A stretch of 64,000 bases of DNA, from IMG/VR virus record IMGVR_UViG_3300032047_002388, positions 64,140-128,139 of that record. The stretch is one strand, 5' to 3'. Source of the DNA: a virus. Shown here in pieces: positions 1-46,773 of this stretch. The position numbers and the translations under genes were made by a program. Position 1 is the stretch's first letter. The number at the start of each line of letters is the position of its first letter. The notes below the pieces were generated by a model. The model ran no database searches. It was not told the DNA's origin and worked only from the letters and a program-made list of their open reading frames with translations.

Positions 1-1
1 A

Positions 2-316
2 AATTCTGAGATGAAACAATTTAAAAAATTGATGTTAGAATATTGGGATAAAAATTTAACTAAAGTATTCACTAAGAAAAGAGATATTCAAATTGCAGAT
101 GCCGTACTAGAGTTATTTAGAAGAGCAGAACATATTGAAAACTTTAACAAAAAACATCTTTACTTATTGATTAGAGAAATGACAGATGTTAAAACACATT
201 ACATAACAAAAGTAGTTAACGTAATGAAACAACATCAGAGAAAGATTTTAAATGAATACCTAGAAGTAGGAGAATTTACAACCGATAGTAGAGATGAGTT
301 TAGTTGGGAAGGGTAA
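2..316 (+). CDS. Partial (5' truncated) gene, probably the C-terminus of a phage late-transcription sigma-factor-like protein
   Basis: Frame is open upstream of the ATG at 11 to the window edge. The helical segment DIQIADAVLELFRR..NFNKKHLYLLIREMT..T..ITKVV resembles C-termini of sigma-like proteins in large uncultured myoviruses (recalled, not searched). Confidence 0.4.
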   Translation, partial: NSEMKQFKKLMLEYWDKNLTKVFTKKRDIQIADAVLELFRRAEHIENFNKKHLYLLIREMTDVKTHYITKVVNVMKQHQRKILNEYLEVGEFTTDSRDEFSWEG

Positions 317-12231: not shown

Positions 12232-18714
<6,483 letters not shown>

Positions 18715-28778: not shown

Positions 28779-31700
28779 ATGGCTATAATCAAAAAATTTT
28801 CATCACTAGAGAATTTGAGTAGATATGGTGTATTTTTGAATGATACCAATCCAAACTCAGATTACTTTAGAATTACAGAATTAGGAGAAAATCTTACTGG
28901 TGGTAAGAATGGTTTCCTTATAGAAGGTTCTGAATGTCTTAAAGAAACTACTGATATAAAAATTGAAATATTGGATGTAAATGGTAATCCAGTATATTTC
29001 GAACCAGGTCAAGGTATTCCTCAATATTACGAAGGATTATCTAAAGTAGTAGGAATTTATGTTTACGAAGATACCCCAATCGGACTTGGTAAAATTACTA
29101 TTCTCGGTGAATTAAAATCATATTTTGATAAAAACGATGCAGGAAATAAACTTGATATACCTGAGGAATGGAGGGGTGTATATAATGTTAAGTGGGAACG
29201 AACAATAAACATAAATAAAAATCTTGCAAACGAAACTAGAGTTCGTTTTTACAAAAGACCAAAGATTTCCATAGAAGAAATTTCCAAACCTATTTTTACA
29301 AAAACAATTCCAATTGCAATCCATTCTGGTAGTATTGAAGGACAAGCATTTACTCCACCAGAAGGTCAAGATTATAATTCTTATGCAGGTGGAGTATTAT
29401 ATAAATTGATTCATGATGGAGGGCCTTTGTTTAGTTCCTCTATGGATGAAACTCAATTATTTATTGAAGATTTAAATTTTAATCCAACTGTAAAAGAAGT
29501 ATTAAGTGAAACAGAATTATTAGTTGATTCTGCATATACAAGTTCAGATGGAACAGTTAGTGGGTTTGGTCCAAAAGCATACAATACTTCATTTGAAAAT
29601 AACGATGGAGTAGTTACAGTTGAATCGGCATTGACTGGTTCATTTGCAAAAATAAAACTTACAAACTTAAAAACTTTTGTTGGAGATGTTGCAAGAGTAA
29701 AAGTATTTAGAAAATCAAGAAACGAAGCTGGTGATTTTACATTAGTACAAGAACAAAAATTAGAATCAACTGAGTTGTTAAAAGATATAACAACCCAAAC
29801 AGATACAGAATTATCATATGGAATATTCAATGATTACAACTTAAGTAATTATTGGATTACATCATCCAACTCACCAGTTACAGTTAATAACACACAACTT
29901 CTTAATTCTATAAAAGTAGATTATGTAGGAAGTGGTACACAATTAATTTATACATCAGAATCAATTGAAGTTGGTAGTGATATAGAATATAACTTATCAT
30001 TCAAAACTAAATTGAGTGGTTCTGCAAGTGATTCTAAACAAATAAACGCATATCTAAGTTCATCTGAATTTACACAATCAATCGTAACAGTTAGTGGTTC
30101 TAATGATACACTTCAAAAATTTGATGTTAATAAAAATATTATATCAACAAATTCAGGTAGTGCAAGATTAGTATTTGAGGTAAATGGAGATGATTGGTAC
30201 ATATCAAATGTATCATTTAGAAATGCAGAAGAAACTGCGTTTTCACCTGATGAGTTTACATTAGTACAACAAGTACCTAGAAAACTTGATTCTGAGTTTT
30301 TTGATTTTAAATTTGAGTTCTATGATATAAACAATAACTTTATACCAGTAGAAATCGGTACATCAAAAGAATTTAGTGGAGGTAATTTAACAACAACATC
30401 AAATGTTAGATTGTTAGAATTTGAAACTGATAGAACTGCATTTAGATTTTCAAGTGGTTCATTAGGTAATCCACCATTTCAACAATCAAGATTTAGAGTA
30501 ACATCAAATGGATTGACAGGTTCAATTACGTTTGCATCTGCTGCGTTTGATAAAAATGGTGTTTATATAGACCCATCATCTTATGGTGGAGATTATCCAG
30601 GTGGATTAACAAGTAACAACGTTTTAACGTTAGCATCTTTTAGTGGTTCTGATGATGGAGTTATCGTAGGTTCGATTACTTATACTGCATCAATTGAAGA
30701 TAAAGAAGAAATAGAAACAATAACAAGATTTGAAGATGGTGAACCTGCATCGGCACTTATTGTAACATCAAATCAAAATCAGTTCTTTTACAAAGCAACT
30801 GATTTATCAGTAGAACCAAGTGGACAACAGATACAGATTCAAGCACAAAGAAAAAATCTTGCATCTGATACAACAACAATTACAGTAAATAGTGGAAGTG
30901 GTAAGCCTGGTCTTACACAAGGTTCAACTGTAAATGGTATAACTTCATTTACTTTAAATGCAAGTGATTATTCATTTGGGACAGGAAATACTACATATGA
31001 GTTCAGCGGTTCAGATGAATTCGGTTCACAATTTGTAGATAGAATATCAATAGCACCAGTCAAAAAATTCGATGGTGTTTCATTACAACTTACAAATAAC
31101 AATCAAACTTTTAACGCAACTTCACAAAGTGCTGTATCTTCGTTAGAACAGAGTAGTGGTTCAGTAACATTTAGAATAGGTACAGAACTTATTCAATTCC
31201 AAAATGGATTATCATCAAATAATAGATTTGATATTGCAGGAATTACTGGTTCTGGTTGTGTACCAACTAGTACAACTCCAAGTAAAAATGAATACTCACT
31301 TTCTTCATTTAATTCAGATAGTGGTTCGTTAACAATTAACATTGATTATAAAGATGGTAGTGGAGATATATCAGAATTTCAACAAATTGTAAATTACACA
31401 AAAGCGGTTGCAGGTGTTACAGGACAAGATGGACAAGATGGACAAGATGGTGAAGATGGACAAGATGGAACTAACGGCCCACCTGGACCTGGTGTAACAT
31501 ATAGAGGATTGTGGAGTGTACTAACAGAATATGTTTCATCATCATTAAGAAGGGATGTTGTAGAGGGTACTGATGGAAGTTATTACTTGGCAAAATCATC
31601 ACACACTGCAAGTAATCTAAATCAAAGACCAGTTGATGGTGGTTCATATACAACATATTGGGAATCATTTGGTGCAGAATTTAGTTCAGTAGCAACTGAT

Positions 31701-34700
31701 ATTTTATTTTCTCAAGATGTTTATGCAAACAGAACTGTAAACATAGGTTCGAGTGGTTCTGGTCACCCAGTCATAGCATTGAACGCAGATAGTTCAAATG
31801 CAGGAACGGGTCAAGACCCATATATTGCAATTGGAGGAATTACTCAATATGCTGCTAACAATGGAATTTTTATTGGATATGATGGTGGGGATAAAAAATT
31901 AAGTTTAAAAGGTGGTGCATCTGATGGATTCCTTACATGGGATGGTAGTAGTCTAAACATACAAGGTTCAATTAATATAACAGGTGGTGCAACTGCAGAT
32001 TCTTTATCTGCATTAAATTCAGAAACAAGTTCACTACAAAGTGGTGTAAATAATTCTATATTGAGTGGTTCAGCAGCTGCATCGGCAGCTCAAACAAACG
32101 CTCAAAGTTTCGCTAGTACTGCAGCAGCTAACTCTGTAACAAGTGGTTCAAACGCAGCATCAACCGCTCAATCAAACGCTCAAAACTTTGCTAGTACCGC
32201 AGCAGGAAACGCAGCAACTTCGGCATCAAATGCTCAATCAACCGCGAATACGGCTCAATCAACTGCCAATTCTGCATTAACCGCAGCAGCAAGTAGTGGT
32301 TCGGTAGACCCAACAACACAAAGAGTAACTAAAAACGCATCACCGAGTGGAGCTGGATTATATTTCGGTGCAAATAATTTAGGATATTATAATTCATCCG
32401 ATTGGAAAGCTTATTTAAGTTCGAGTGGTGAATTCTTTTTAGGTAGTCCTTCAGATTCAAACTATTTAGAATGGAATGGAAGTTCTTTAAATATTGCTGG
32501 TTCAATTACGATTACTGCTGGACCAACTGCAGCTCAACTAAGTTCTCTGAATAGTGCAACTAGTTCTTTATCTAGTGATATCAGTACAGCTCAAACAAAC
32601 GCTCAAAACTTTGCAAGTACCGCAGCAGCTAATTCTGTAACAAGTGGTTCAAATGCAGCATCAACTGCCCAAACAAACGCCCAAAACTTTGCAAGTACCG
32701 CAGCAGCTAATTCTGTAACAAGTGGTTCAAATGCAGCATCAACCGCTCAATCAAACGCTCAAAACTTTGCTAGTACGGCAGCAGGAAATGCTGCAACTTC
32801 GGCATCAAATGCTCAATCAACCGCAAATACTGCAAATAGTTTAGCAACTAACGCCAGTTCATCCGCGGGAACTGCACTTCAAAACGCAGCAACTGCTTTA
32901 TCAACCGCTAACACTAACGCTGGTTTAATACCGAATACTTCTACCGGTCTTATTGATTTCTCACCAACTCCAAGTGGAGCTGGATTATATTTCGGTGCAA
33001 ATAATATAGGATATTATGCATCAGGTAATTGGGATGCATTCCTATCATCTAGTGGAGCATTTTATTTAGGTGGAGAAGATGGGGCATTACAATGGAATGG
33101 TAGTAATTTAACAATCTCAGGAGATGGTACATTCACTGGAACTCTATCTGGTGGTACTGTGGTTGGAGGTACAATGTTCGTGCCTAGTGCAACTAATCCA
33201 AAATTCCAAGTAGATGCAGATGGGATTGTTACAGCTGATGAAGCAAAAATAGAAGGTGAAATAACTGCATCTGCTGGTTTAATAGGTAGTTGGAAAATTG
33301 ATGATGTAAATGTGGGTGGTTCGTTAAAAGATTCCGAAGGTAGAATGGTTTTAAACCCAACAGATAAAAAAATACAATTGTATAATTCTTCTTTGGAATT
33401 AAAAGCACAGATTAATTCCGATGATAGTTTAACATCACCAGGTTTAGGAAATATTTACATTGCTAGTTATTACAATAACCAACCAGGTAGTACATTGAAT
33501 AATCCAAGTGGTCCAACATCCTCAACTACTTCAACTTCACTTCAAAGTGGAACACCTACCTATACTACTAATGATGGTGAATTTACTGTTAGTGGTTCTA
33601 ATGGTGGTGATTATCAGTTATCAGGTCTTGATACAATACCAACATGGGGATATGGAAGTAGTGTGGCGATTGTAAGTGAAACTATATCATCAGGTACTGG
33701 TAATCCATCTGGTAATCTTACACCAAACATGGGCCCTAGCACAATTTATCAATCTGGTGTTACTTATAAACAATCATATGATTACATTTATTTAGTTATA
33801 GAAAAAACTTCTGATAATTCAGAAGTTGCAGAAATATTTCTTGGATATGCATATGCTAGAAGTGGATATTCAATTAGTAATTATTATCAAGCAACTGGTA
33901 CTGGTATATATGATTGGCAATACAACAGTGGTTATTCAGTTTCCGGTCATAGAGGTCTATATACAGTAAACACACCAATCACAACTACTGTAACTCTTGA
34001 AAATAATACCACTTATAGAGTAAGATATAAAAGATTTATAAAAAATAGTTCAGGTAGAAAATCATATTTAAATGGTAGTAGTTATACACCAACAAATACT
34101 TATTATACTCATAATACTGGTGGGACTAATGCTATTTATTCAGGTCTTGATGAAACTTTTCAATTGAACCAACCATCAAACTTTGTTGAAATATCAGGTG
34201 GAGGAATTCAAGCAGTAACAAACTCAGACCAGTTTGTAAAAATGTTTAGAGTATCACCTGGTACTTATTCATCTACTTTATTTCAAGTAAGAGGTGGTCA
34301 AACCATGTTAAGTAGTGATAGTGATACAGAAACTAATTTATATTCTCATACTGGTAGGAATCTTTTAGTTGGTAGAAACACATTAGGATATAGTTGGTAT
34401 GGTGGTGATTTTTATAACCCACTAGCTAATAATCACAATAGTAATATAATGAAGGGTATTGTTATGCAATCAGATACCAGTGAATCTCCTGGCTCATCTA
34501 GTTCACCCAAAAACCTTGCATACAATATTGCACAAGGATATATGCATATATGGTTACAGCATAGTAGTAGTACGAATAGGTATTATGAATTACCAAATCA
34601 ATTAGATGGTGGTACTTATAATCCTGCATCAACAATTTATATACCAGTAGGATATCAATTGTGGTTGTTTAACGAATCAGATGGTGATAGTGTATTTGTA

Positions 34701-34859
34701 AGAGGGTTATTACATGGTGCTAGTAGTAGTAATAATTACCACACACTACAAGGTGGTGGTGCTTTACTATGTGTATATATGGGAAGTTCTAGTGCACAAG
34801 ACCCTACCGAAAGCCACAAATGGATAGTTTACTCAGAATACGATAATACTTGGAGTTAA
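28779..34859 (+). CDS. Long tail fibre / receptor-binding protein
   Basis: 2026 aa with collagen-like G-X-Y triplets, Ala/Ser/Asn coiled-coil repeats and duplicated beta modules, followed by a fibre-assembly chaperone gene. Confidence 0.75.
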   Translation: MAIIKKFSSLENLSRYGVFLNDTNPNSDYFRITELGENLTGGKNGFLIEGSECLKETTDIKIEILDVNGNPVYFEPGQGIPQYYEGLSKVVGIYVYEDTPIGLGKITILGELKSYFDKNDAGNKLDIPEEWRGVYNVKWERTININKNLANETRVRFYKRPKISIEEISKPIFTKTIPIAIHSGSIEGQAFTPPEGQDYNSYAGGVLYKLIHDGGPLFSSSMDETQLFIEDLNFNPTVKEVLSETELLVDSAYTSSDGTVSGFGPKAYNTSFENNDGVVTVESALTGSFAKIKLTNLKTFVGDVARVKVFRKSRNEAGDFTLVQEQKLESTELLKDITTQTDTELSYGIFNDYNLSNYWITSSNSPVTVNNTQLLNSIKVDYVGSGTQLIYTSESIEVGSDIEYNLSFKTKLSGSASDSKQINAYLSSSEFTQSIVTVSGSNDTLQKFDVNKNIISTNSGSARLVFEVNGDDWYISNVSFRNAEETAFSPDEFTLVQQVPRKLDSEFFDFKFEFYDINNNFIPVEIGTSKEFSGGNLTTTSNVRLLEFETDRTAFRFSSGSLGNPPFQQSRFRVTSNGLTGSITFASAAFDKNGVYIDPSSYGGDYPGGLTSNNVLTLASFSGSDDGVIVGSITYTASIEDKEEIETITRFEDGEPASALIVTSNQNQFFYKATDLSVEPSGQQIQIQAQRKNLASDTTTITVNSGSGKPGLTQGSTVNGITSFTLNASDYSFGTGNTTYEFSGSDEFGSQFVDRISIAPVKKFDGVSLQLTNNNQTFNATSQSAVSSLEQSSGSVTFRIGTELIQFQNGLSSNNRFDIAGITGSGCVPTSTTPSKNEYSLSSFNSDSGSLTINIDYKDGSGDISEFQQIVNYTKAVAGVTGQDGQDGQDGEDGQDGTNGPPGPGVTYRGLWSVLTEYVSSSLRRDVVEGTDGSYYLAKSSHTASNLNQRPVDGGSYTTYWESFGAEFSSVATDILFSQDVYANRTVNIGSSGSGHPVIALNADSSNAGTGQDPYIAIGGITQYAANNGIFIGYDGGDKKLSLKGGASDGFLTWDGSSLNIQGSINITGGATADSLSALNSETSSLQSGVNNSILSGSAAASAAQTNAQSFASTAAANSVTSGSNAASTAQSNAQNFASTAAGNAATSASNAQSTANTAQSTANSALTAAASSGSVDPTTQRVTKNASPSGAGLYFGANNLGYYNSSDWKAYLSSSGEFFLGSPSDSNYLEWNGSSLNIAGSITITAGPTAAQLSSLNSATSSLSSDISTAQTNAQNFASTAAANSVTSGSNAASTAQTNAQNFASTAAANSVTSGSNAASTAQSNAQNFASTAAGNAATSASNAQSTANTANSLATNASSSAGTALQNAATALSTANTNAGLIPNTSTGLIDFSPTPSGAGLYFGANNIGYYASGNWDAFLSSSGAFYLGGEDGALQWNGSNLTISGDGTFTGTLSGGTVVGGTMFVPSATNPKFQVDADGIVTADEAKIEGEITASAGLIGSWKIDDVNVGGSLKDSEGRMVLNPTDKKIQLYNSSLELKAQINSDDSLTSPGLGNIYIASYYNNQPGSTLNNPSGPTSSTTSTSLQSGTPTYTTNDGEFTVSGSNGGDYQLSGLDTIPTWGYGSSVAIVSETISSGTGNPSGNLTPNMGPSTIYQSGVTYKQSYDYIYLVIEKTSDNSEVAEIFLGYAYARSGYSISNYYQATGTGIYDWQYNSGYSVSGHRGLYTVNTPITTTVTLENNTTYRVRYKRFIKNSSGRKSYLNGSSYTPTNTYYTHNTGGTNAIYSGLDETFQLNQPSNFVEISGGGIQAVTNSDQFVKMFRVSPGTYSSTLFQVRGGQTMLSSDSDTETNLYSHTGRNLLVGRNTLGYSWYGGDFYNPLANNHNSNIMKGIVMQSDTSESPGSSSSPKNLAYNIAQGYMHIWLQHSSSTNRYYELPNQLDGGTYNPASTIYIPVGYQLWLFNESDGDSVFVRGLLHGASSSNNYHTLQGGGALLCVYMGSSSAQDPTESHKWIVYSEYDNTWS
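31422..31493 (+). repeat. 9-nt GGACAAGAT repeats encoding collagen-like GQD triplets
   Basis: GQDGQDGQDGEDGQDGTNGPPGPG. Confidence 0.9.
32088..32830 (+). repeat. Intragenic 78-nt-period direct repeats (AQTNAQNFASTAAANSVTSGSNAAST)
   Basis: Near-identical DNA blocks at about 32088-32246 and 32589-32830. Confidence 0.9.
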
Positions 34860-34860
34860 T

Positions 34861-35328
34861 ATGAATATAGAATTTAATAAAGGATATGTATATGAAAGTG
34901 GTTCAACAGTAGAGTGGCCACTTCATTCACAAATAGTTGAACAAAGATTAAACCTAACCTCTTCAATTAATGAAGTCGGTGATGAATATTTAGTATCACA
35001 TAGTTATTTTCCATTAGTTGAACTTTTACCTACTTCACATTCTGAAGAACAAATACCAGACCCTTCAACAGATGTAGAAAAAAGTGGTTCAACTTATTAT
35101 ATAAACTATACACTTAGAGATAAAACTTCTGATGAACTTACTATACATTATAATCATGGTTGGCAAGATGTTAGAACCAAAAGAACACGACTGTTAGACC
35201 AGAGTGATTATATGGGAAATAGTGATTACCCAATTACAGAAGAATGGAGAACATATAGACAGGCATTAAGAGATATTACAAATCAATCATCTCCATTTAC
35301 TATTACATGGCCAACTAAACCAGAATAA
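34861..35328 (+). CDS. Tail fibre assembly chaperone
   Basis: W..VR..R..LL.QSD...D.P....WRTYRQALRDIT.Q...I.WP.KP motif. Confidence 0.88.
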   Translation: MNIEFNKGYVYESGSTVEWPLHSQIVEQRLNLTSSINEVGDEYLVSHSYFPLVELLPTSHSEEQIPDPSTDVEKSGSTYYINYTLRDKTSDELTIHYNHGWQDVRTKRTRLLDQSDYMGNSDYPITEEWRTYRQALRDITNQSSPFTITWPTKPE

Positions 35329-35561: not shown

Positions 35562-36551
35562 TTGAAATTATTAGTAACAACTGGTTTTGGAAATATTATA
35601 CAAGGTGGTGCAGATATTTGGGTAAATCATTTTATCAATTTAATACTACCACAACTTTCCGATGATTATTTTATATTTGTAGATGGGAGGAGACCCGAAG
35701 GATTTGAAACGTCACTAACAAACTACCACTTTCATTACGATGATTGGATTAAATCAGAAAAGTTATTAGAAGATTGTGAAGAAATTCACTTCTTACATGC
35801 AAACTATCACAAAAGAGAACACTTTTGGAAACATAAAGATAAGTGGGGTAATATATTTGTACATGCATATTTACCTGATATGTTAAAATATGGAGACTCA
35901 GTAAAACAATTCAATACTAATGTAAATGAAGATGATTTCTATGAACTACTTCATTATTGTAAAAAAAGAATTTGGATAGGAAATAACGATTCTCAATTAT
36001 TTAAAGATTATCCAACAAATACACACACAGTAACTAACTTTTATGAATTCAAACAAGATAAACTAATAAATGTTAATAGTAAGAAAGTTGCATTTACATC
36101 ACGAATTGAATCAAGAAAAAACGTACATTATTTAGATGGTATTGAGGGATTGGTATTATCAAATCAATATGATTGGAAAAATATAACAGAAACAACAGAT
36201 TATGATTTTTCAAAAATAAAATTTTATCAATGGGATATAAACATTCATGAAAACTTTATGAATTTAGATTGGGGAATTGCACATTGTTGTCATACTAACG
36301 AACCTTTTGGATATAATATATTTCAAGCAGTAGATTGGGGTAAATTACCAATCATACATACTGATTGGGGTGATGTAGATTATCGATATAAAGCAAATGA
36401 TAAACAAAGTTTTGGATATGCATATGGAAATATTCTAAGAGATACTCCAATGCAAAGAACAAAAGAATTTATGAAATTGAAAAAATATCTTAAAAAGTTC
36501 GATAATAAAGAAACTTGGACAAAAAAAATTATCGTTTTCTTTAATTCGTAA
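35562..36551 (+). CDS. Glycosyltransferase, GT-B (GT4-like)
   Basis: N-terminal GGADIWV, R.E.RKN and EPFGY.IFQAVD.GKLPI (EX7E-like region); TTG start. Confidence 0.7.
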   Translation: MKLLVTTGFGNIIQGGADIWVNHFINLILPQLSDDYFIFVDGRRPEGFETSLTNYHFHYDDWIKSEKLLEDCEEIHFLHANYHKREHFWKHKDKWGNIFVHAYLPDMLKYGDSVKQFNTNVNEDDFYELLHYCKKRIWIGNNDSQLFKDYPTNTHTVTNFYEFKQDKLINVNSKKVAFTSRIESRKNVHYLDGIEGLVLSNQYDWKNITETTDYDFSKIKFYQWDINIHENFMNLDWGIAHCCHTNEPFGYNIFQAVDWGKLPIIHTDWGDVDYRYKANDKQSFGYAYGNILRDTPMQRTKEFMKLKKYLKKFDNKETWTKKIIVFFNS

Positions 36552-36555
36552 TATA

Positions 36556-36563
36556 TATTTATA
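36556..36563 (+). promoter_or_regulatory. Putative late promoter TATTTATA heading the glycan cluster
   Basis: Recurrent motif upstream of ATG 36579. Confidence 0.7.
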
Positions 36564-36578
36564 TACGAACATTGTTAC

Positions 36579-37361
36579 ATGGGTCTTATAAATTATAATT
36601 TGGTAAAAGATTTTTTTACCAACAATCAATCAAACAAACTTGATAAGGACGGTAAATCATATACCGAACTTACACCTGTTAAATATAGGTGGACACATGG
36701 TGCAACAGATAAATATCTTGGAGATGGTTTACTAGTGTATTCGATAATCCAATTTATGAAGTATAAAACATGCGTGTGTTTGGGAAGTGGTGGTGGATTT
36801 ATTCCAAGAATTATTTCTCAGGCAAGACTTGATTTACACGATGTAGATATATTTGATGGTTCTAAGGCTATGGAATATGGTGATTGTGGTACAACTATTT
36901 TAGTTGATGCCAACAATGGAGTAAATGGAAAACCAGATTGGATTGATAATGATTCATTCTTTAGAAAAAGTTTTCCATGTAGAATCATATTAGAAACTAC
37001 TGAAACTGCATATTACAATTATTTTGTTAAAGAAGATATAAAGATAGATTATTTACATATCGATGCAGGACATTCATTTGAAGATGTTGAACGAGATTTC
37101 AATTTATACTCTAAAAGGTTAAACGAAGGGGGTATGATTGCAATACATGATACAGATAAATCATATGAAGTAAATCATATTATACCAAATGATATAGATG
37201 AAAAATATCATCAAACATATTCTTTTGGCCCTAACATGCTTATAAAAGAATTACAAAAAAATAAAGAATGGGAAGTTTTCAATTTCTTCAATCACAAACC
37301 AAAGGCGAACCATCCATCATCGACGGGTCTAACTTTTTTACAGAAGAGGAAGATAAGATAA
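36579..37361 (+). CDS. Class I SAM-dependent methyltransferase (Methyltransf_24-like)
   Basis: VCLGSGGG, IDYLHIDAGHSFEDV..DF and GG.IAIHD. Confidence 0.85.
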   Translation: MGLINYNLVKDFFTNNQSNKLDKDGKSYTELTPVKYRWTHGATDKYLGDGLLVYSIIQFMKYKTCVCLGSGGGFIPRIISQARLDLHDVDIFDGSKAMEYGDCGTTILVDANNGVNGKPDWIDNDSFFRKSFPCRIILETTETAYYNYFVKEDIKIDYLHIDAGHSFEDVERDFNLYSKRLNEGGMIAIHDTDKSYEVNHIIPNDIDEKYHQTYSFGPNMLIKELQKNKEWEVFNFFNHKPKANHPSSTGLTFLQKRKIR

Positions 37362-38203
37362 ATTTGGTTACTGTTGTTGGTCATAACATTACGATGTTAC
37401 CTCATATGCTAAATCACTACAAAGATATAGTAGATGATGTATATGTAGTTGTTTACAGACAGCATGAAGATGATGGTATATTAGAAGAGATTGAGAAACT
37501 AGGAATAACTCCATATAAAATTGTTACTGAACCAAAATTTAATTGGCAGAAAGTAACTGATTTATATAATGAAGTTAAAATGACCAAACCAGAAAGTTGG
37601 TGGGTAGTATCAGATGATGATGAGATTCATGTATATCCCAAACCTCTCAGAGAAATGATTGAAGAGTGTGAAGAAAATGGATGGGAGTTTATAACTGGTG
37701 GTTTTTTAGATAGAATTGGAGAAGATGGAACTTTTCCAAAAATAGATAATACAACTAATATATGGGAAAGTTTTCCATATAGTGGTTTTTTTAGGTATCC
37801 ACTTAGTGGGGCCTGTCCCAATAAATGTTGTGTAATGAAGGGGAAAATTCATGTAACAAATGGCCAACATTATGCAATCGTAGATGGGAATCATGTGTGG
37901 GGTGAAGAGGGTGCAAAACATCCTCTTCGTTACCCACCTGGTAGAGGTGAAGGATTTATACAAGTTCATCACTTCAAATGGGATTCAACTGTTTTAGAAC
38001 GATTAAAAGAAGTTTCAGAAACAGAAGAAGATTACACTTTTTGGAAAGAATACAAAAAGATGTATGAGGCAATCAGAGATACTGATTGGAAAATAAATAT
38101 TGATGAACCAAAGTTTGGTTTGGTAAAACAAGTACCATTCGAAAATGAACATTGGGATTATCAATATTGGAATAGATTAACAAAAGGAATAATTAAAGTT
38201 TAA
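37268..38203 (+). CDS. GT-A fold glycosyltransferase (GT2-like); true start probably near 37358-37364
   Basis: LPHMLNHY, WWVVSDDDE (DxD), G.FLDR and VHHFKW. Confidence 0.7.
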   Translation: MGSFQFLQSQTKGEPSIIDGSNFFTEEEDKINLVTVVGHNITMLPHMLNHYKDIVDDVYVVVYRQHEDDGILEEIEKLGITPYKIVTEPKFNWQKVTDLYNEVKMTKPESWWVVSDDDEIHVYPKPLREMIEECEENGWEFITGGFLDRIGEDGTFPKIDNTTNIWESFPYSGFFRYPLSGACPNKCCVMKGKIHVTNGQHYAIVDGNHVWGEEGAKHPLRYPPGRGEGFIQVHHFKWDSTVLERLKEVSETEEDYTFWKEYKKMYEAIRDTDWKINIDEPKFGLVKQVPFENEHWDYQYWNRLTKGIIKV

Positions 38204-38207
38204 AATT

Positions 38208-38387
38208 ATGGCAAAGAACGAAACAGAAAAAGTACTTGAAGAAAGAAAAATTAAGGCGTTAGAAAAAATTGCTAACTCTTTAGATGCACTTACTCTATGG
38301 TTTGAAGAAATCGATAAAGATGAGTGGGGGCCAAGAATCGAGTGGTATCTTTCAATGTGGAAAGAGAAGTTTATAGATGAGGAGTAA
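38208..38387 (+). CDS. Small hypothetical protein (59 aa, not in the ORF track)
   Basis: MAKNETEKVLEERKIKALEKIANSLDALTLWFEE...FIDEE*; fills the gap and overlaps the next start. Confidence 0.7.
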   Translation: MAKNETEKVLEERKIKALEKIANSLDALTLWFEEIDKDEWGPRIEWYLSMWKEKFIDEE

Positions 38388-39810
38388 ACTAGGTGTAATA
38401 GTACCATATAGAAATAGGTCAACACATCTTGATAAGTTTTTAAAACAAACACCAAAAAAGTTAAAAGAACAAGAAATCGATTTTGAAATTATCGTTGTTG
38501 AACAAGCAGATGATAAACCATTTAATCGAGGAAAGTTACTTAACATTGGTGTAAAAGAAGCAAAAGAAAGAGGTTGTACCTATGTTGCTCTACATGATGT
38601 GGATATGATACCATTACGCGTTGATTACTCATCAGTTGATAGACCAACTCACCTTGCAACACATTTTACATCATATCATGGAGAAAAAAGAATTATATTC
38701 GATGAATATTTCGGAGGTGTAACTCTTTTTCCTATCCTAGATTACTACAAAGTAAATGGATACTCAAATAATTATTGGGGATGGGGATATGAAGATGATG
38801 ATTTGATGTATCGTTGTAGAGAAAACTATATGGATTTTAACACCAAACAAATACCAATCAAAACAACTAATTCAGCTGGATTAGTTTTTAATGGAGTTGA
38901 CTCTCATGTAAAAATTCCAAAACCATATCAATTCGATAACTATACAATATTATTAACATTTGAACCTGATGCAATAGAATGTGATGATGAACGAGCAATA
39001 GATGAATATTCTATTTTATCAGTAGCTGGTTACGATATGGGGTTTTCATATAACTCATTTAAAAGATACAAATTTGAAACATTTACAACAAAGAAAGAAT
39101 GTATAAGTTTAAAATCTGTAATCACAGAACCTAAGAGAACTACTCTAATGGTTGTGGTAGACCAGTATAATAAATTTTTAAAATTTTATCAAGATGGTGA
39201 GTTAATTGATGAAGCCGAATACGATGGAAGATTACTTCAGTATAATAAACAAAAATTTATACATCTTGGACAAACTCCTCAAGCAAATCACAATAATAGG
39301 AGACCATTTAAGGGTAGAATTGATTATCTTGCTATTTGGAATCATTCTTTAGAAGAAGGACAAGTAGATTCAATTTATAAAAACCTACCTCTTGGTGTAC
39401 TTGAAAACTTTGATGGATATACAACTTCACATTGTTTAGAAGCTGTTTATGATGCAAAGGCATCTACATATCACAAACTTATTGATTTAAGTGATAATAA
39501 TAGACATGGAAAAATTCATCATTGTGATAGAAAACCTATTTATCATGAAGAAGATTTTACTGAAATTGCAGTGCCATGGAGAAGAGAAGGTACATTTTTA
39601 TTATTACCTCATGCAGATAATGGATTTTATGAAAACAAATGGATTTATACCGAAACTAGAAAAAATCAAGTTAGATTTTACAATAAAGTTTTAAAAGGAA
39701 AAACAAATTGGAGAAGAGATGGTATGGATATGTTAAAATATAAATTAATGAGTAACACCGATATAGGAGGAGAAGATTATAGTGGAGTTATGTTATCTTG
39801 TGTATTATGA
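38377..39810 (+). CDS. GT7 (beta-1,4-galactosyltransferase-like) glycosyltransferase with inserted LamG domain
   Basis: IVPYRNR..HL, FNRG.L.N.G, HDVD, YFGGV and NGYSN.YWGWG.EDDD, then LamG-like FNG...F.GRID.LAIWN..L. Confidence 0.85.
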   Translation: MRSKLGVIVPYRNRSTHLDKFLKQTPKKLKEQEIDFEIIVVEQADDKPFNRGKLLNIGVKEAKERGCTYVALHDVDMIPLRVDYSSVDRPTHLATHFTSYHGEKRIIFDEYFGGVTLFPILDYYKVNGYSNNYWGWGYEDDDLMYRCRENYMDFNTKQIPIKTTNSAGLVFNGVDSHVKIPKPYQFDNYTILLTFEPDAIECDDERAIDEYSILSVAGYDMGFSYNSFKRYKFETFTTKKECISLKSVITEPKRTTLMVVVDQYNKFLKFYQDGELIDEAEYDGRLLQYNKQKFIHLGQTPQANHNNRRPFKGRIDYLAIWNHSLEEGQVDSIYKNLPLGVLENFDGYTTSHCLEAVYDAKASTYHKLIDLSDNNRHGKIHHCDRKPIYHEEDFTEIAVPWRREGTFLLLPHADNGFYENKWIYTETRKNQVRFYNKVLKGKTNWRRDGMDMLKYKLMSNTDIGGEDYSGVMLSCVL

Positions 39811-40217
39811 TGAGTATGTATAAAACAGGTGTAATTGCAGGTAACTTCGATGTTATACATCCAGGTTATATAAAAATGTTTAAAGAATGTAAATCATATT
39901 GTCAACAATTTATAATTCTTCTACATACAGACCCATCAATTGAAAGGCCGGAAAAATTAAAACCAATTCTTACTAAAGAAGAAAGAACAGAAGTTCTAAC
40001 TTCAATAAAGTATATAGATGGAATTGCATATTATACTTATGAAAAGGAGTTGGTAGAACTATTAAAAAGATTATCACCAGATATCAGATTTTTAGGAGAT
40101 GATTATCGAGGTAGAACCTACACTGGTTTTGAATTAGATATTCCAGTCCACTATCTAAACAGAGACCATGGGTGGAGTACAACCAAGTTTAAAAAACTAA
40201 TTGCAGATACGATATGA
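39798..40217 (+). CDS. Cytidylyl/adenylyltransferase (TagD/RfaE-II-like, HxGH superfamily)
   Basis: AGNFDVIHPGY, KP....ER, GDDY and R.HGWSTT. Confidence 0.85.
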   Translation: MCIMMSMYKTGVIAGNFDVIHPGYIKMFKECKSYCQQFIILLHTDPSIERPEKLKPILTKEERTEVLTSIKYIDGIAYYTYEKELVELLKRLSPDIRFLGDDYRGRTYTGFELDIPVHYLNRDHGWSTTKFKKLIADTI

Positions 40218-41680
40218 AACTAGGTGTATGTGTACCATATAGAAACAGAGAAGCTCACTTAAAAGAGTTTATACCAACGATTGGAGAGTATTTAGAATCA
40301 CAAGGTATTGAGTATGGAATTTACTTAGGACATCAATGTGATGAACATTTATTCAATAGAGGTGCTATGAAAAATGTTGCAGCAAAACACGCATTTGAAG
40401 ATGGTTGTGATTATATTGTTTGGCATGATATCGATATGATACCAGAAGAAGGATGTGATTATTCTTTTCCAAAAGAACATCCTATACATATTGCAACAAG
40501 TATATCTCAAATGGATTACAAATTAAAATATCAAGAATACTTTGGTGGAGCAGTTTTATTTTCAAAAGAACAAGTAGAGGCAACAAATGGATACTCAAAT
40601 GATTATTGGGATTGGGGTATGGAAGATGATGATTTATTTTGGAGATGTGTTCTTGAAGGATATGCAAACGATTCTTATATGAAATATACTTCTGCAGAAC
40701 AAAATTATTTTCACTTTAATGGAAAAAATTCTTTCATAGATATTGAAACAACTCCTACTTTACGAAACTTAACATCCAAATCACATACAGTTTCAGTATT
40801 AGTTAGAGCAAATCAACAAGAAGAAAAAGTTCCTATTTGGTTAGTTGGTGATGAAGATAGAAGATTTTGTGAATATCCAATACTTCGTAGACCTGGTTAC
40901 GATTGGGGATTAAGTTATAACAACTCAAGAGCATACACAGGTATATTGTGGAATCATAAAGTTGAAAATTATTATCAATGGATGAAACGATATGAAAACC
41001 AATGGAGTTGGGTAACACTATCAGTAGATACAGTTAATAATAAAATACATTTTTACTTAAATGGTAAAGAATCAGATGCAAGACATGGCCATGGTACTCA
41101 TTCACCACAATCATTTGAAGGTAAATTAAAAAGATATGGTTCTGCACCTTATTTTATTGGAACAACAACTTCTGCTAAAGAAAACGATGTAAATAAATTC
41201 TTCAAAGGTGATATTGCTAAAGTAATGATGTGGGATAGAAAATTAGAAGAAAGTGAAATTCAAAATATATATAAAAGACCAATAAGAGATGGTTTAAAAC
41301 TATTCTATGATTTTAATTCTGGTACTGCAAAAGATTTGAGTGGTAATGATAATCATGGAAGAATTGTTAATTGTCAAAAAAACAGAGGTGTAATAAAAAT
41401 ACCTTACACAATTATACCTCATAGAACACCTGGTAGATTAAAATGTTTACCTCATAAAGATGAAGGATTGACAAAAGATGAAAATGGAAATCAAATATGG
41501 GCAAAGGGTGAAACAACTGCAAGAAACGAAAGAAGATATGTTTTACAAATGCAACAAGGTACATGGGATTATAAATCAGATGGTATTAAACAACTAGAAT
41601 ATGAATTACTAGAAGTTAAACATATTAATGCAAAGTACAACGCAAAACTTATAAATGTTAAATTAGATGGCAGAAAATAA
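40214..41680 (+). CDS. Second GT7-like glycosyltransferase with inserted LamG domain
   Basis: VPYRNRE.HL, FNRG..KN, HDID, YFGG and NGYSNDYWDWGMEDDD; LamG-like W..VT....FYLNG, FKG.I..V..WDR.L and DLSGN.NHG. Confidence 0.85.
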   Translation: MKLGVCVPYRNREAHLKEFIPTIGEYLESQGIEYGIYLGHQCDEHLFNRGAMKNVAAKHAFEDGCDYIVWHDIDMIPEEGCDYSFPKEHPIHIATSISQMDYKLKYQEYFGGAVLFSKEQVEATNGYSNDYWDWGMEDDDLFWRCVLEGYANDSYMKYTSAEQNYFHFNGKNSFIDIETTPTLRNLTSKSHTVSVLVRANQQEEKVPIWLVGDEDRRFCEYPILRRPGYDWGLSYNNSRAYTGILWNHKVENYYQWMKRYENQWSWVTLSVDTVNNKIHFYLNGKESDARHGHGTHSPQSFEGKLKRYGSAPYFIGTTTSAKENDVNKFFKGDIAKVMMWDRKLEESEIQNIYKRPIRDGLKLFYDFNSGTAKDLSGNDNHGRIVNCQKNRGVIKIPYTIIPHRTPGRLKCLPHKDEGLTKDENGNQIWAKGETTARNERRYVLQMQQGTWDYKSDGIKQLEYELLEVKHINAKYNAKLINVKLDGRK

Positions 41681-43121
41681 CGAAACAAAATTAGAACAAG
41701 AAAAAGAGGTTAAAGGAACAATCGGTGGAGATAATCCTTTTTATCTTGGTGTACGAGATAAATTAAATTCAACTGGTTGTGGAATGTGTTTAGCAAAATG
41801 GACACAAGTTACACTTCATTTACAGTTAGGACATACTCATTCTTGTCACCACCCGAAAACACACCCTATTTCTACAAAAGAAATAAAAAGAAATCCATCT
41901 GCACTTCATAATACAAGGTATAAAAAACTTCGTAGAAAAGAAATGTTAGAAGGTGAAAGACCTGAAGAATGTGATTACTGTTGGGGAGTAGAGGATAACT
42001 CTGATAGATTTTCAGATAGAACTTTTAAATCTGGTGAATCATGGAGTTGGCCATTTGCTGATGAAATTCAAGCTTTAGATTGGAGAGCAGATTACAATCC
42101 AAAATATGTTGAGGTTGCATTCTCAAATGCTTGTAACTTTAAATGTTCGTATTGTGGCCCTGCGTTTTCAACACAACACATGCAAGAAATTGAAAAGTTT
42201 GGACCATATCCAACAACAGATAATTTTAATTCATTAGAGTGGGCAAGACAAGAAAACAAAATGCCAATTCCACAATCACAAGAAAATCCTTATGTAGAAG
42301 CTTTTTGGAAATGGTGGCCAGAATTATATAGAGATTTACATACCTTTAGAATTACTGGTGGTGAACCTTTAATGAGTAAAGATACATGGGAGGTATTAGA
42401 TTATATTATTAACGAACCAAACCCAAATAGAAACCTTAAACTAGCAATTAACTCAAATTTAGGTATACCTGATAAATTAGTTGATAGATTCATAGAAAAA
42501 ATTCAGAGAATATGTGATGAGGATAGAGTTGATGAGTTTATTATCTTTACTTCAGTTGATGGGTGGGGAGAACAAGCAGAATATGCAAGAAATGGATTGG
42601 TATTTAATAAGTTTTGGGATAATGTAAATAAACTTCTTACTAAATGTCCAAGAATTAATCTTACATTTATGGTTACTTATAATGCATTATCAGTACCAAC
42701 CTATGATAAGTTAATAGATGGGGTTTATGATTTAAAAAGAGAATATGGAACTTCAGATAGATATTGGAAATCAGCTGCATTCTTAGATACATCATATTTA
42801 AGATATCCTACACATCAAACAGTTCAAGTTTTACCAAAAGGATGGGAAAAGGCAGTTTATCAACAAGCAAAACAGGCAGATTTCTTGGGAGTACCTGTAT
42901 TTGATTATAGTTACATTGGATATTCTGATATTGAAATTCAAAAGATTAAAAGAACATATGATTGGATGAAGGCACCAGTCGATGAAAAGAGATTAAAAAC
43001 TCAGAGAAGAAACTTTGGACATTATTTTAGAGCACACGATGAAAGAAGAGGAACAGATTTTTGTAAAACGTTTCCAGAGTTTGCAGATTTTTACCACGAA
43101 TGTTTAGAAATTAAGTTATGA
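41667..43121 (+). CDS. Radical SAM protein with N-terminal twitch/SPASM-like Cys cluster
   Basis: CNFKCSYC and ITGGEPL; N-terminal C..KW...SCHH...CDYCW. Confidence 0.88.
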   Translation: MAENNETKLEQEKEVKGTIGGDNPFYLGVRDKLNSTGCGMCLAKWTQVTLHLQLGHTHSCHHPKTHPISTKEIKRNPSALHNTRYKKLRRKEMLEGERPEECDYCWGVEDNSDRFSDRTFKSGESWSWPFADEIQALDWRADYNPKYVEVAFSNACNFKCSYCGPAFSTQHMQEIEKFGPYPTTDNFNSLEWARQENKMPIPQSQENPYVEAFWKWWPELYRDLHTFRITGGEPLMSKDTWEVLDYIINEPNPNRNLKLAINSNLGIPDKLVDRFIEKIQRICDEDRVDEFIIFTSVDGWGEQAEYARNGLVFNKFWDNVNKLLTKCPRINLTFMVTYNALSVPTYDKLIDGVYDLKREYGTSDRYWKSAAFLDTSYLRYPTHQTVQVLPKGWEKAVYQQAKQADFLGVPVFDYSYIGYSDIEIQKIKRTYDWMKAPVDEKRLKTQRRNFGHYFRAHDERRGTDFCKTFPEFADFYHECLEIKL

Positions 43122-43843
43122 TAGAATTTAAAGGAGATAGTTGTTATTTCGTTGTACCAGAAAGTAAATACGGTCTTTCGGAAATAATACCAAAATATGT
43201 TACTGAAAACAACTTTACTTTTTGTATAGGTTGTAAACCAGATTGGAAAAATATGAAAGAAGGAGAGAATTCTGCAGAAGGAGGACTCCTAATGAAAAAT
43301 GGTCAACATATGGGATTATCTTGTTTTGTAAGTGGAGGAAAAAGATACTTTAGAGCAACTCTATGGGTGCAAGATAGAAAAGGATTCGTGAGTTGTGTAG
43401 AAAAACAATTACCAGTAACACATGAAGATGAAGATAAAGAATACTTCATATCGTTCAGACATGATTTAAGAAAAAAGAAAATTGTTATTGGTAACTATAA
43501 TCACTATGAAGAATTAGAATATCCTGCTGCATCACCAATCGATTATTCAAACTCTTGGTTGTGGGTTGGAGCAGCAAATGCATTTAATAGTTGTGCACCT
43601 GAACATAGACAATACTTTAGAGGTAGTATTAGTTACGTTAGTGTACATGCTGAATACTTAAGTAACTTAGATATCAAAAAGATGTATGGAAATATTACAT
43701 CCATATCAGAACTTAAAAAATTACAAAACGATAAAACAGTATTATTTTCAGATTTAAAAATAAAAACACCATATAAAGTGTTTGATAATAGTGATAATGG
43801 AAATCACTTAATTGTATATGATGAAGCATGGCTAGAGAGTTAA
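43118..43843 (+). CDS. Stand-alone LamG/concanavalin A-like domain protein
   Basis: F.G...., LWVG, FRGSI..V.V...YLS and D.SDNGNH resemble the LamG inserts in the neighbouring GT7 genes. Confidence 0.55.
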   Translation: MIEFKGDSCYFVVPESKYGLSEIIPKYVTENNFTFCIGCKPDWKNMKEGENSAEGGLLMKNGQHMGLSCFVSGGKRYFRATLWVQDRKGFVSCVEKQLPVTHEDEDKEYFISFRHDLRKKKIVIGNYNHYEELEYPAASPIDYSNSWLWVGAANAFNSCAPEHRQYFRGSISYVSVHAEYLSNLDIKKMYGNITSISELKKLQNDKTVLFSDLKIKTPYKVFDNSDNGNHLIVYDEAWLES

Positions 43844-46184: not shown

Positions 46185-46773
46185 TGTATATTATAAAGAA
46201 AGAAGTTGGAATGATTTCCACATATACTCATCAAAAGTTTTAACTGGTGGGGTTAAGATTGTACAACCATCTGTTTATCATGAACAAAGAGGTGAAATAT
46301 CTACAACATATCATTCTGATTACTATGATAGATTGATACCAGTTGAAGAAAGACAAGATGGAGTAAACTTTAAACACGATAGATATTCAAAATCAGAAGA
46401 GGGAGTACTTAGAGGGTTACACTATGATGATAAAACATGGAAACTTGTATCATGTTTGACTGGTAAAATTTATTTAGTAGTTTTAGATGTAAGAGGTGGT
46501 AATACAACTAGAAATCCACAATATGGAAGTTGGGAAACCTATATACTTTCACCCTCAACACAATCACAAGTACTTATACCACCTGGATTTGCTAATGGAC
46601 ATTATGTAATGGAAAAAAATTCTATATTCTATTACAAATTAGCTTACAAAGGTGAGTTTAACGATGTAGATAAACAACAAACAATAAAATGGAATAGTAA
46701 GAAGTTCAATATAGAATGGCCTTGTACTAATCCGATAATTTCTAAAAGAGATGCAAATGGAAAAGATTCTTAA
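46168..46773 (+). CDS. rmlC: dTDP-4-dehydrorhamnose 3,5-epimerase (cupin)
   Basis: S..GVLRGLHY, KLV.C..G.I..V..D.R, IPPGFANGH and I.WP..NPIIS.RD. Confidence 0.88.
   Translation: MAIGRSVYYKERSWNDFHIYSSKVLTGGVKIVQPSVYHEQRGEISTTYHSDYYDRLIPVEERQDGVNFKHDRYSKSEEGVLRGLHYDDKTWKLVSCLTGKIYLVVLDVRGGNTTRNPQYGSWETYILSPSTQSQVLIPPGFANGHYVMEKNSIFYYKLAYKGEFNDVDKQQTIKWNSKKFNIEWPCTNPIISKRDANGKDS

Follow-up and report, generated by a model that had tools for sequence, protein, structure and literature searches.

The glycosyltransferases of family GT7 are textbook enzymes of the animal Golgi. Their choice of acceptor depends on a mobile lid loop, to which lactose synthase adds a second protein as specifier. For bovine B4GALT1, Asp254, His347 and Met344 are described as forming the primary metal site (PMC7565966); UDP-Gal is placed near Asp252, Glu317 and Asp318, beneath a long, flexible loop whose closure as a lid creates the acceptor site (PMC4202792). 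Here we analyze two open reading frames (ORFs), A and B, in a 64,000-nucleotide stretch of viral DNA (positions 64,140 to 128,139 of IMG/VR record IMGVR_UViG_3300032047_002388; the whole stretch is referred to as the window), whose products carry a LamG domain between the two parts of a GT7 catalytic fold. A and B are paralogous members of the GT7/beta-1,4-galactosyltransferase GT-A family, and a predicted structure, taken with profile alignments, shows the LamG domain to be a true insertion in one surface loop of the GT-A fold. The design is widespread in uncultured phages and apparently undescribed; no description of the GT7-LamG architecture, or of the gene cassette to which it belongs, was found in the open-access and bioRxiv literature. 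We favor, with moderate confidence, an explanation in which this pair of enzymes adds successive sugars with the nested LamG domain as the acceptor module, a glycan of the phage fiber or virion being the likeliest target.

Two GT7 enzymes with a nested LamG domain

The features of the two genes are as follows.

38377..39810, + strand: ORF A, GT7-LamG glycosyltransferase of 477 amino acids (aa), WGWG lineage (Pfam, B4GALT1 match, AlphaFold2 model, fold match)
38377..38844, + strand: ORF A, N-terminal GT-A core, residues 1-156, with DVD at 74-76, YFGG at 111-114, WGWGYEDDD at 134-142 and a helix at 139-150
38845..39573, + strand: ORF A, inserted LamG/pentraxin-like domain, residues ~157-399 (fold match 164-393; Laminin_G_3 at residues 173-330)
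39574..39807, + strand: ORF A, resumed GT7 C-terminus, residues 400-477 (profile, fold and tail-homology evidence)
40214..41680, + strand: ORF B, GT7-LamG glycosyltransferase of 488 aa, WDWG lineage (Pfam; 35% identity to A; insert profile)

Both frames are uninterrupted on the + strand at these coordinates, and A shares 35% identity with B over residues 4-464. The original prediction, made by reading the sequence, had assigned the beta-4-galactosyltransferase motif series to both, and every motif it listed is readable in the two translations: VPYRNR (residues 9-14), FNRG (49-52), DVD (74-76), YFGG (111-114) and NGYSNNYWGWGYEDDD (127-142) in ORF A, and VPYRNR, FNRG, DID, YFGG and NGYSNDYWDWGMEDDD in ORF B. 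All three expected Pfam families exceed their gathering scores in A and in B: Glyco_transf_7N (A, E 4.9e-21, 75.2 bits; B, E 9.1e-17, 61.4 bits; cut-off 27), Glyco_transf_7C (A, E 2.4e-16, 59.6 bits; B, E 2.3e-19, 69.3 bits; cut-off 23) and Laminin_G_3 (A, E 9.5e-11, 42.5 bits; B, E 4.6e-12, 46.8 bits; cut-off 27.6). Because of the insert, the Glyco_transf_7C match breaks off early in both proteins, at profile position 63-67 of 78. Residues 4-165 of A match B4GALT1 at E 2.5e-28 and B4GALT7 at E 4e-23 (phmmer). Neither protein has a hydrophobic segment (maximum Kyte-Doolittle(19) value 0.85 for A and 0.30 for B), from which both are predicted to be soluble and cytoplasmic, in contrast to the Golgi enzymes.

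An AlphaFold2 model of A was computed on profile A1 (60 sequences), with a mean pLDDT of 92.3 and a pTM of 0.87. In this model residues 164-393 match LamG and pentraxin folds (VIA-align), with the LamG-like domain of PAPP-A at the top (8hgg_C, Z 21.8, 197 residues aligned, model 165..393), followed by the Bacteroides carbohydrate-binding protein BACOVA_03559 (4dqa, Z 21.3) and pentraxins (Z 18-19.8); a profile match to the N-domain of sialidase NanC (CBM40) was also obtained at E 2.3e-6. The insert, which is ~235-240 residues long, is thus seen in the model to be a LamG/pentraxin-type beta-sandwich, or jelly roll. The family insert profile covers residues 159-397 of A and residues 155-398 of B (E 5.2e-84), and ORF B is laid out accordingly, with the core at residues 1-154, the insert at ~155-398 (nucleotides 40676-41407) and the tail from residue ~399. 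These boundaries agree with the LamG-like stretch read earlier from the sequence, at about residues 167-385 of A and 165-388 of B.

Comparison of the model with animal enzymes bears on the claim that the GT7 C-terminus resumes beyond the insert. The model of A aligns to B4GALT7 (4irq_B) with a Z-score of 26.8 and a root mean square deviation (rmsd) of 2.0 over 209/240 aligned residues, model 1..477 falling on chain residues 91..314, and to B4GALT1 (1tvy_A) with a Z-score of 26.6 over 214 residues of chain 178..398, again with a model range of 1..477. Both alignments, which use a predicted model and not an experimental structure, reach the C-termini of the animal chains; since at most ~160 residues precede the insert, at least 50 of the aligned residues therefore come from the tail. 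In the tail of A the landmarks are P400, R402-R403, the strand at 406-409, H412, R433-F434 and D448-G449, with W422, T427, R428, N430 and Q431 in the lid loop. The stretch directly around and after H412, residues 411-430, has the lowest pLDDT of the tail (71-81), as expected of a mobile loop.

Profile comparisons point the same way. Positions 3-153 of A1 match B4GALT1 at E 1.6e-42 (PDB sequences), and a second, colinear stretch at positions 433-473 matches the last 40 residues of the B4GALT1 chain, with a conditional E of 2.4e-4 that alone is not significant. The insertion point is fixed by proteins that lack the insert: database proteins of 213-225 aa have the GT7 core joined directly to the tail, and a hidden Markov model (HMM) of A residues 396-477 matches 29 such short proteins at their C-termini, the best being P0211 (E 2.1e-9, HMM 6-79 on residues 149-215 of 215), P0227 (6.3e-7) and P0239 (9.9e-7). 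The same HMM matches six C-terminal fragments of the insert-bearing family and none of 2511 unrelated background ORFs from the related loci. The RRxGxFxxLPH string of the phage enzymes aligns with RRNGRYISLPH and like strings of the insert-less proteins. As MAFFT alignment of A and B with the insert-less proteins (P0193 and P0156 included) set the short tails against the start of the insert, the HMM alignment was used instead. The insert is thus bounded by the helix after EDDD (A 139-150) and by beta-strand 406-409, beyond which come His412 and the lid loop; it ends 6-12 residues ahead of that strand, where the original prediction had placed it, just before the flexible metal and acceptor loop.

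That the insertion is an artefact of annotation or assembly, or the C-terminal segment unrelated to GT7, is highly improbable. The early end of the Glyco_transf_7C match (63-67 of 78) and the failure of the lone tail sequence to match anything in the PDB would fit such a view. Against it stand the uninterrupted frames, the alignment to B4GALT enzymes over 1..477, the homology of the tail to insert-less C-termini, and the recurrence of the architecture, with all three Pfam domains, in 116/120 best database matches and in at least 739 of 759 pattern-matching IMG/VR stretches. Taken together, the structural alignment, the colinear second profile stretch and the tail homology uphold the earlier proposal that the GT7 fold resumes after the insert: a confident model pairs the tail with the C-terminus of the B4GALT enzymes and gives the insert a LamG/pentraxin jelly-roll fold.

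Active-site residues, paralogous lineages and relatives

In the best 80 of the related IMG/VR loci, 170 ORFs of the GT7-LamG type reach 440 aa or more. Pooled with A and B of the window, they amount to 145 distinct sequences, of which 68 belong to lineage A, 67 to lineage B and the other 10 to a third group, C. Residues D74, D76, E139, D140 and H412 are invariant in lineages A (68/68) and B (67/67). The DVD/DID and EDDD strings align to the B4GALT1 motifs (the metal-binding DxD, and E-D-D-D with the catalytic Asp), and H412 aligns with the conserved His of the insert-less relatives, its G-x6-H spacing being that of B4GALT1; it probably corresponds to the metal-binding His347 of the bovine enzyme. 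Given the invariance of DxD, EDDD and the loop His in both lineages, A and B are predicted to be active, inverting, metal-dependent transferases.

The two lineages differ consistently around the active site. Position 135 is G in 68/68 lineage A sequences (WGWG) and D in 63/67 of lineage B (WDWG); residue 409, three before the His, is Cys in all 67 B sequences and L or S in A; and residue 438 is M in 66/67 of B and V or I in A. Further lineage-specific lid positions (A vs B) are 415 (N/E), 428 (R/A), 431 (Q/E) and 436 (N vs L/T). These lineage-conserved differences lie in two mobile loops, which in B4GALT1 form the donor lid and the acceptor site, and from them we infer that A and B make different sugar additions. 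The WGWG/WDWG distinction, which the original prediction had seen between the two paralogs and connected with different substrates, is therefore lineage-wide and accompanied by other lid-loop changes, and it fits that suggestion. Tyr111 of A is the Tyr of YFGG, a position that we take to be that of bovine Tyr289, which restricts the donor to galactose (Gal) rather than N-acetylgalactosamine (GalNAc). On the acceptor side, R433, F434 and V438 align with the R-F-x-x-I string of B4GALT1, whose N-acetyl pocket is given as Arg359/Phe360/Ile363 (PMC7565966), and this pairing is a weak hint that the acceptor may be an N-acetylhexosamine-like sugar.

A third GT7-LamG paralog is present upstream of A in 14/80 loci, with 10 distinct sequences (e.g. 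L020:8244-9692, L024:2146-3597 and L071:8222-9700). It keeps DxD, has WGG.FHW.D in place of WGWGYEDDD, N, G or D at the loop His, and has lost R12 and R51; with its LamG domain still present, it is probably a pseudo-glycosyltransferase without activity.

Relatives of the family are numerous. A database search returned 1600 clusters at E <= 1e-3 among 6154 near-length candidates, which are either unnamed, called 'hypothetical' or automatically labeled 'beta-1,4-galactosyltransferase 1'. In the ESM Atlas at least 28 of 30 matches are clusters of at least 50 members with the same Pfam families; all of the rows listed are 100% Viruses, and the commonest known phylum is Uroviricota. Relatives are encoded in 111 stretches of GTDB species genomes, from which 78 loci were retained. 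In 71 of these the genes are insert-less GT7-like genes in bacteria, with 32-53% identity over about residues 1-150, many of them in Azospirillum, Rhodoplanes, Roseomonas, Simkania, Pelagibacteraceae single-cell genomes and others. Insert-bearing genes occur in only seven (L083-L088 and L090), all on contigs of metagenome-assembled genomes binned as Flavobacteriales, Pelagibacterales, Anaeromicropila or Spirochaetaceae; as five of the seven show the order methyltransferase, GT2-like, A, B, radical SAM, phage contigs that fell into these bins are the probable source. The insert-bearing form thus appears to be phage-specific. Over residues 1-150 the cores are 37-57% identical to insert-less bacterial and metagenomic viral GT7 proteins, against ~30% identity in the structural alignment with the animal enzymes, so the nearest cores are bacterial or viral and the earlier description of the pair as eukaryote-like was overstated.

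A quick LG+G4 tree of the cores (156 columns) was made from 124 rows: 56 insert-bearing sequences (subsamples of 23 A and 23 B, and all 10 C), 27 metagenomic insert-less sequences, 40 of the 72 bacterial ones and a single ostracod-assembly protein. Its backbone is unresolved. Clades B (SH-aLRT 100) and C (99) are recovered, and clade A (94) includes the insert-less P0156 and P0193. Presence of the insert requires six changes on the tree, of which well-supported branches force at least three; a single gain with occasional loss is neither shown nor excluded by it. P0156 and P0193 are insert-less proteins of 222 and 225 aa on single short contigs, with tails like those of the insert-less group, and their placement may reflect loss of LamG, recombination or a tree artefact. 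The ostracod-assembly protein, P0068 (NCBI CAG0899472.1, from a Cyprideis torosa assembly), has 506 aa with three tandem GT7 cores (1-150, 168-316 and 337-478) that lack inserts and tails. Rather than an animal protein, it most likely represents a eukaryotic gene model that splices together three neighboring phage paralogs from a contaminating contig.

A gene cassette in a large tailed phage

The window makes up the 3' half of a virus record of 128 kb in IMG/VR, with an estimated completeness of 67%; its long ORFs are all on the + strand and its G+C content is ~31%. PHROGs assignments in it include a baseplate wedge protein, a primase, an SbcC-like nuclease, the large terminase and the portal. 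Among cultured phages, the nearest terminases are those of Microcystis phage Mel-JY01 (55.8%) and of the Flavobacterium 'immuto' myophages (54.7%). With baseplate, terminase and portal genes, a fiber-like ORF and a tail chaperone in the window, the genome that carries the GT7-LamG genes is that of a large uncultured tailed phage. The features of the neighborhood that matter here are listed below.

28779-34859, + strand: giant fiber-like ORF, 2026 aa, with a short collagen-like G-x-x run and long Ser/Thr/Ala-rich repeats
34861-35328, + strand: phage tail assembly chaperone, directly after the fiber-like ORF (Pfam Phage_tail_APC, E 4.9e-14)
35562..36551, + strand: 329-aa protein between fiber and cassette; no family match found (Pfam, NCBIfam)
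36579..37361, + strand: methyltransferase of Methyltransf_24 type, cassette member (Pfam, E 8.7e-10)
37268..38203, + strand: putative GT2_4-like glycosyltransferase, cassette member (Pfam Glyco_tranf_2_4, E 4.3e-4, below cut-off)
39798..40217, + strand: small cytidylyl/adenylyltransferase-like gene, 139 aa, between A and B (Pfam CTP_transf_like, E 1.3e-11)
41667..43121, + strand: twitch-domain radical SAM enzyme, 484 aa, cassette member (NCBIfam NF033640 N_Twi_rSAM, E 3.3e-103)
43118..43843, + strand: stand-alone LamG protein, 241 aa (insert HMM; AlphaFold2 model; fold match)
55964-57559, + strand: large terminase (PHROGs)
58047-59798, + strand: portal (PHROGs)

The GT7-LamG genes are part of a cassette whose order is nearly invariant in the relatives: methyltransferase, GT2-like protein, A, B, radical SAM enzyme and a ~245-aa protein. 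Two or more GT7-LamG ORFs are present in 78/80 loci (two in 64, three in 14) and one in the other two. With membership scored by phmmer at E <= 1e-5, the methyltransferase is found in 73 of the 80 loci, the GT2-like protein in 76 and the radical SAM enzyme in 76, with more than one copy in 33; the 329-aa protein is found in 38, the 139-aa cytidylyltransferase (for which NCBIfam rfaE_dom_II and g3p_cytidyltrns are below cut-off) in only nine, and the stand-alone LamG protein in 24 by direct similarity and in more by profile. PHROGs holds no family that was found for ORF A.

In the window, the cassette lies directly downstream of the fiber-like ORF and tail assembly chaperone (28779..35328), and among the relatives, 43 of the 58 loci with at least 8 kb of upstream DNA have the end of an ORF of 1000 aa or more in the nearest 8 kb. 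The repeats of the 2026-aa fiber-like ORF read SNAQ.FASTAA.NS.TSGSNAAS. A second giant ORF, of 2160 aa, is present at 12232-18714; neither giant ORF has a PHROG or Pfam family, and both are candidate glycosylation targets. The methyltransferase and GT2-like frames as listed overlap by 94 nt; as the GT2-like orthologs have 278-313 aa, mostly 279-290, the true start is probably 20-30 codons downstream of 37268. The radical SAM homolog of Ralstonia phage RsoM2USA (38% identity) was set aside as a functional lead, since our profiles detected no LamG, methyltransferase or GT2-like gene beside it.

Downstream of the cassette are genes for nucleotide-sugar metabolism that span ~15 kb of the window: an RmlC-like 3,5-epimerase, three short-chain dehydrogenase/reductase-type epimerase/dehydratase/reductase genes, and split genes for an E1-like thiamine pyrophosphate (TPP) enzyme, the alpha-like part of 215 aa and the beta-like part of 181 aa (46751-47398 and 49294-49839). 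E1-like TPP pairs add two-carbon branches to deoxysugars in some antibiotic pathways, which suggests that the phage pathway makes an unusual branched sugar. The cassette and these downstream genes constitute a substantial phage-borne glycan pathway. Further along, a 1048-aa protein (51422-54568) has an N-terminal cytidylyl/adenylyltransferase domain and a zinc-ribbon-like segment at ~416-450; its remaining ~900 residues have no family match in PHROGs, NCBIfam or Pfam.

An alternative is that the cassette instead remodels a glycan of the host envelope (lipopolysaccharide/O-antigen, capsule or S-layer), for example to block superinfection, with lipid-linked or polymeric acceptors. The ~15 kb of nucleotide-sugar genes are typical of polysaccharide clusters, the insert-less relatives reside in bacterial genomes (71/78 loci), and JGI names for some relatives read 'predicted glycosyltransferase involved in capsule biosynthesis' or 'cell wall biosynthesis'. 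On the other side, A and B have no membrane segment, no flippase, polymerase or undecaprenyl-phosphate priming transferase was recognized among the scanned ORFs, and the cassette directly follows the fiber and chaperone in the structural region. We consider this alternative credible, at rather less than even chances.

Modification of the phage's own DNA, with the enzymes glycosylating hypermodified bases, is far less probable still. DNA modification is described as common among phage glycosyltransferases (PMC12619734), and the genome encodes a radical SAM enzyme and a carbamoyltransferase (294-2012). However, the 128 kb contains a single gene of the thymidylate synthase family, which scores above cut-off as an ordinary ThyA (TIGR03284, 354 bits) and not as a hydroxymethylase, an argument confined to the 128 kb of a record that is 67% complete; in addition, GT7 enzymes act on sugar acceptors and the cassette lies in the structural region. 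The carbamoyltransferase is NodU/Nol-like (phrog_1601, E 1.5e-117) and lies far upstream of the glycan cassette in the window; a homolog is present inside the cassette neighborhood in related loci L042 and L044.

The gene at 43118 had been named in the original prediction as a stand-alone LamG gene, and it proves homologous to the GT7 insert by profile and has the same top fold matches. It has no Pfam match at E up to 1; the GT7-insert profile matches it at E 2.3e-12 / 1.1e-13, colinearly, with HMM 13-220 on residues 3-235. Its AlphaFold2 model (pLDDT 90.7) resembles PAPP-A LamG (Z 19.9, 192 residues aligned), 4dqa (Z 19.4), pentraxins (Z 15-17) and laminin/neurexin LG domains (Z ~14). Small LamG proteins upstream of the cassette in some loci (L077:5346-6137, L050:6036-6749, L029:3459-4277 and others) align to the insert profile as circular permutants, with HMM 185-225 at the N-terminus and HMM 10-183 after it; by this pattern, the GT7 insert and the downstream LamG protein bear the D-x-S-x-N-x-x-H-G strand C-terminally, not N-terminally.

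A 4-nt overlap joins the stand-alone LamG gene to the radical SAM gene, and the relatives show up to five alternations of radical SAM and LamG-like genes (200-260 aa; e.g. L030, L054 and L075); because of this overlap and alternation the pair was subjected to complex prediction. The median score of three runs was 0.75, against 0.01 for the best of three controls; the score mark used is reached by 116/157 solved complexes and 2/215 mismatched pairs, a calibration that is only rough, as our own alignments were used. Contacts agree between runs to at least 78%, and the pLDDT of the partners is at least 87. The prediction supports, and does not show, binding of the stand-alone LamG protein to the radical SAM enzyme. 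The predicted interface comprises residues 398-428 of the radical SAM enzyme and, on the LamG side, residues 16-20 of the N-terminal strand and 217-238 of the C-terminal segment, which, judged from their place along the insert profile, would correspond to the parts of the GT7 insert nearest the junctions with the core. Mean column identity is 63% for the radical SAM enzyme and 31% for its LamG partner.

This contact bears directly on a different role for the nested domain, in which LamG, rather than being a lectin, would serve for docking or as a scaffold, bringing the cassette enzymes (GT7 A and B, the radical SAM enzyme and others) together in one complex or keeping them on a protein substrate, while the GT-A loops alone would determine substrate choice. 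We regard this as possible, at rather less than even chances. In its favor, a protein interface is predicted between the stand-alone LamG and the radical SAM enzyme (0.75 vs 0.01); the top fold matches, PAPP-A LamG-like and pentraxins, include protein-binding modules; and sugar-binding residues were not identified. The other strong fold and profile matches are nevertheless to carbohydrate-binding modules (BACOVA_03559, Z 21.3; CBM40/NanC N-domain, E 2.3e-6), and attachment through the terminal face would leave the opposite loop face for a ligand, so the two roles are compatible.

Proposed function and comparison with known systems

In the explanation that we favor, A and B would perform two different, successive sugar additions to a growing glycan, and the LamG module would recognize or hold the acceptor, either a glycan or a glycosylated protein. 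LamG would be attached via its terminal face, covalently in the GT7 enzymes and non-covalently in the radical SAM enzyme, with the loop face left free to hold the acceptor; in this way it may contribute to acceptor choice or, as the original prediction also proposed, to processivity. The likeliest substrate would be a glycan on the phage's own giant fiber or virion, with a host envelope glycan as the main alternative, a judgment drawn from the gene order, the solubility of the enzymes and the lack of a recognizable flippase or polymerase.

Several observations weigh against this explanation or parts of it. The predicted radical SAM-LamG contact is one between proteins and favors a scaffold at least as much as a lectin. 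The alignment of the LamG domain revealed no residues for binding sugar or calcium, and the conserved residues of the insert look structural. The link between the cassette and the fiber is one of gene order alone. The equivalence of H412 and His347 is based on sequence alignment and spacing, not residue-level superposition. With the tail-only profile A3 (57 sequences), B4GALT1 is the top match in the PDB and accounts for 12/14 matches, the alignment covering the last 41 residues of its chain, at an E of only 0.15-0.6; the single tail sequence of A (99 aa) gave no match to PDB sequences by phmmer at E up to 10, and profiles were used because the single sequence is too weak. The core tree leaves room for more than one origin of the insert, the insert-less P0156 and P0193 nesting in clade A with SH-aLRT 95-96. 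Finally, none of 50,697 deposited phage records gave a match (tblastn with ORF A, megablast with 36000-44000), so that no cultured phage among them has a homolog.

A more far-reaching version, which we put forward tentatively and think a little less probable than either the scaffold or the host-envelope alternative, would make LamG a portable substrate-targeting subunit with which a sizeable group of uncultured aquatic tailed phages build a complex glycan on their own giant tail fiber. The domain would be nested in two, sometimes three, GT7 enzymes and would act as a separate, translationally coupled partner of the twitch radical SAM enzyme, with the methyltransferase, further glycosyltransferases and an exotic nucleotide-sugar pathway joining in. 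If true, phages would glycosylate their virions with enzymes of their own, in a manner comparable to giant viruses.

Apart from its biological role, the phage GT7-LamG family is a natural, abundant and sequence-diverse set of enzymes in which the catalytic fold accommodates a lectin-like domain a few residues ahead of the lid loop; for comparison, insert-less relatives are at hand. It offers a compact, soluble system, friendly to bacterial expression, in which to ask how an added binding module re-targets a GT-A enzyme, and it is a possible source of glycosylation tools. The cassette as a whole, with paired GT7-LamG enzymes, a radical SAM enzyme and its LamG protein, a methyltransferase and branched/deoxy-sugar genes beside a giant fiber, points to an unstudied glycan system in aquatic myoviruses.

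Phage-encoded glycosylation has been described in other settings. In mycobacteriophages, phage glycosyltransferases decorate the phage's own structural proteins (Freeman et al. 2023, cited in PMC12619734); the enzyme families and hosts differ from those of phage GT7-LamG, and the target here is a predicted one. The moraphages, large aquatic phages of Bacteroidota described in 2025, have four core glycosyltransferase orthogroups, and the terms 'galactosyltransferase', 'laminin' and 'radical SAM' do not occur in the text of that paper as far as it was available (PMC12619734).

The closest described enzymes are animal B4GALT1 and B4GALT7 (CAZy GT7; 1tvy, 4irq), with which the phage proteins share the GT-A fold (Z 26.6-26.8, rmsd 2.0-2.3 over 209-214 residues, ~30% identity), the motifs DxD, YFGG and WGWG-EDDD, the C-terminal R-F...DGL..L.Y string and, probably, the His with which the lid loop starts. 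Unlike them, the phage enzymes have no membrane anchor or stem and, as the alignment begins at bovine residue 178, lack about the first 48 residues of the catalytic domain; they carry a LamG domain of ~240 aa before the His-bearing strand, and their lid loop is ~9 residues longer. The counterpart of Met344 is L or S in phage A and Cys in phage B. Nearer in sequence are the insert-less bacterial and viral GT7-like proteins (213-330 aa), which have the closest cores and the same tail, R-x-G-x-[YF]-x-x-L-x-H...DGL..L.Y; they differ in that core and tail are contiguous, without LamG, and in that they come mostly from cellular genomes and not from the phage cassette.

Combination of a GT-A domain with a binding module has precedents in other enzymes. 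The GT27 polypeptide GalNAc-transferases have a C-terminal ricin-type lectin domain and the GT7 members B4GALNT3/4 a PA14 domain, and in both a carbohydrate-binding module steers the GT-A domain towards already glycosylated substrates. The phage GT7-LamG enzymes resemble these in joining a GT-A domain to a binding-type module, a functional analogy and not membership: in GT27 and B4GALNT3/4 the module has a different fold and is appended at the end by a linker, whereas the phage LamG is nested in the catalytic fold. GT27 enzymes are recognized by a C-terminal ricin B lectin on a flexible linker, and the model of A has in its place a nested LamG fold. In lactose synthase, alpha-lactalbumin binds beside the lid loop of B4GALT1 and re-specifies the acceptor (PMC7565966), which provides a precedent for acceptor control by a module next to B4GALT1 residues 345-365; alpha-lactalbumin is a separate and unrelated protein, unlike the LamG domain nested in the phage enzymes.

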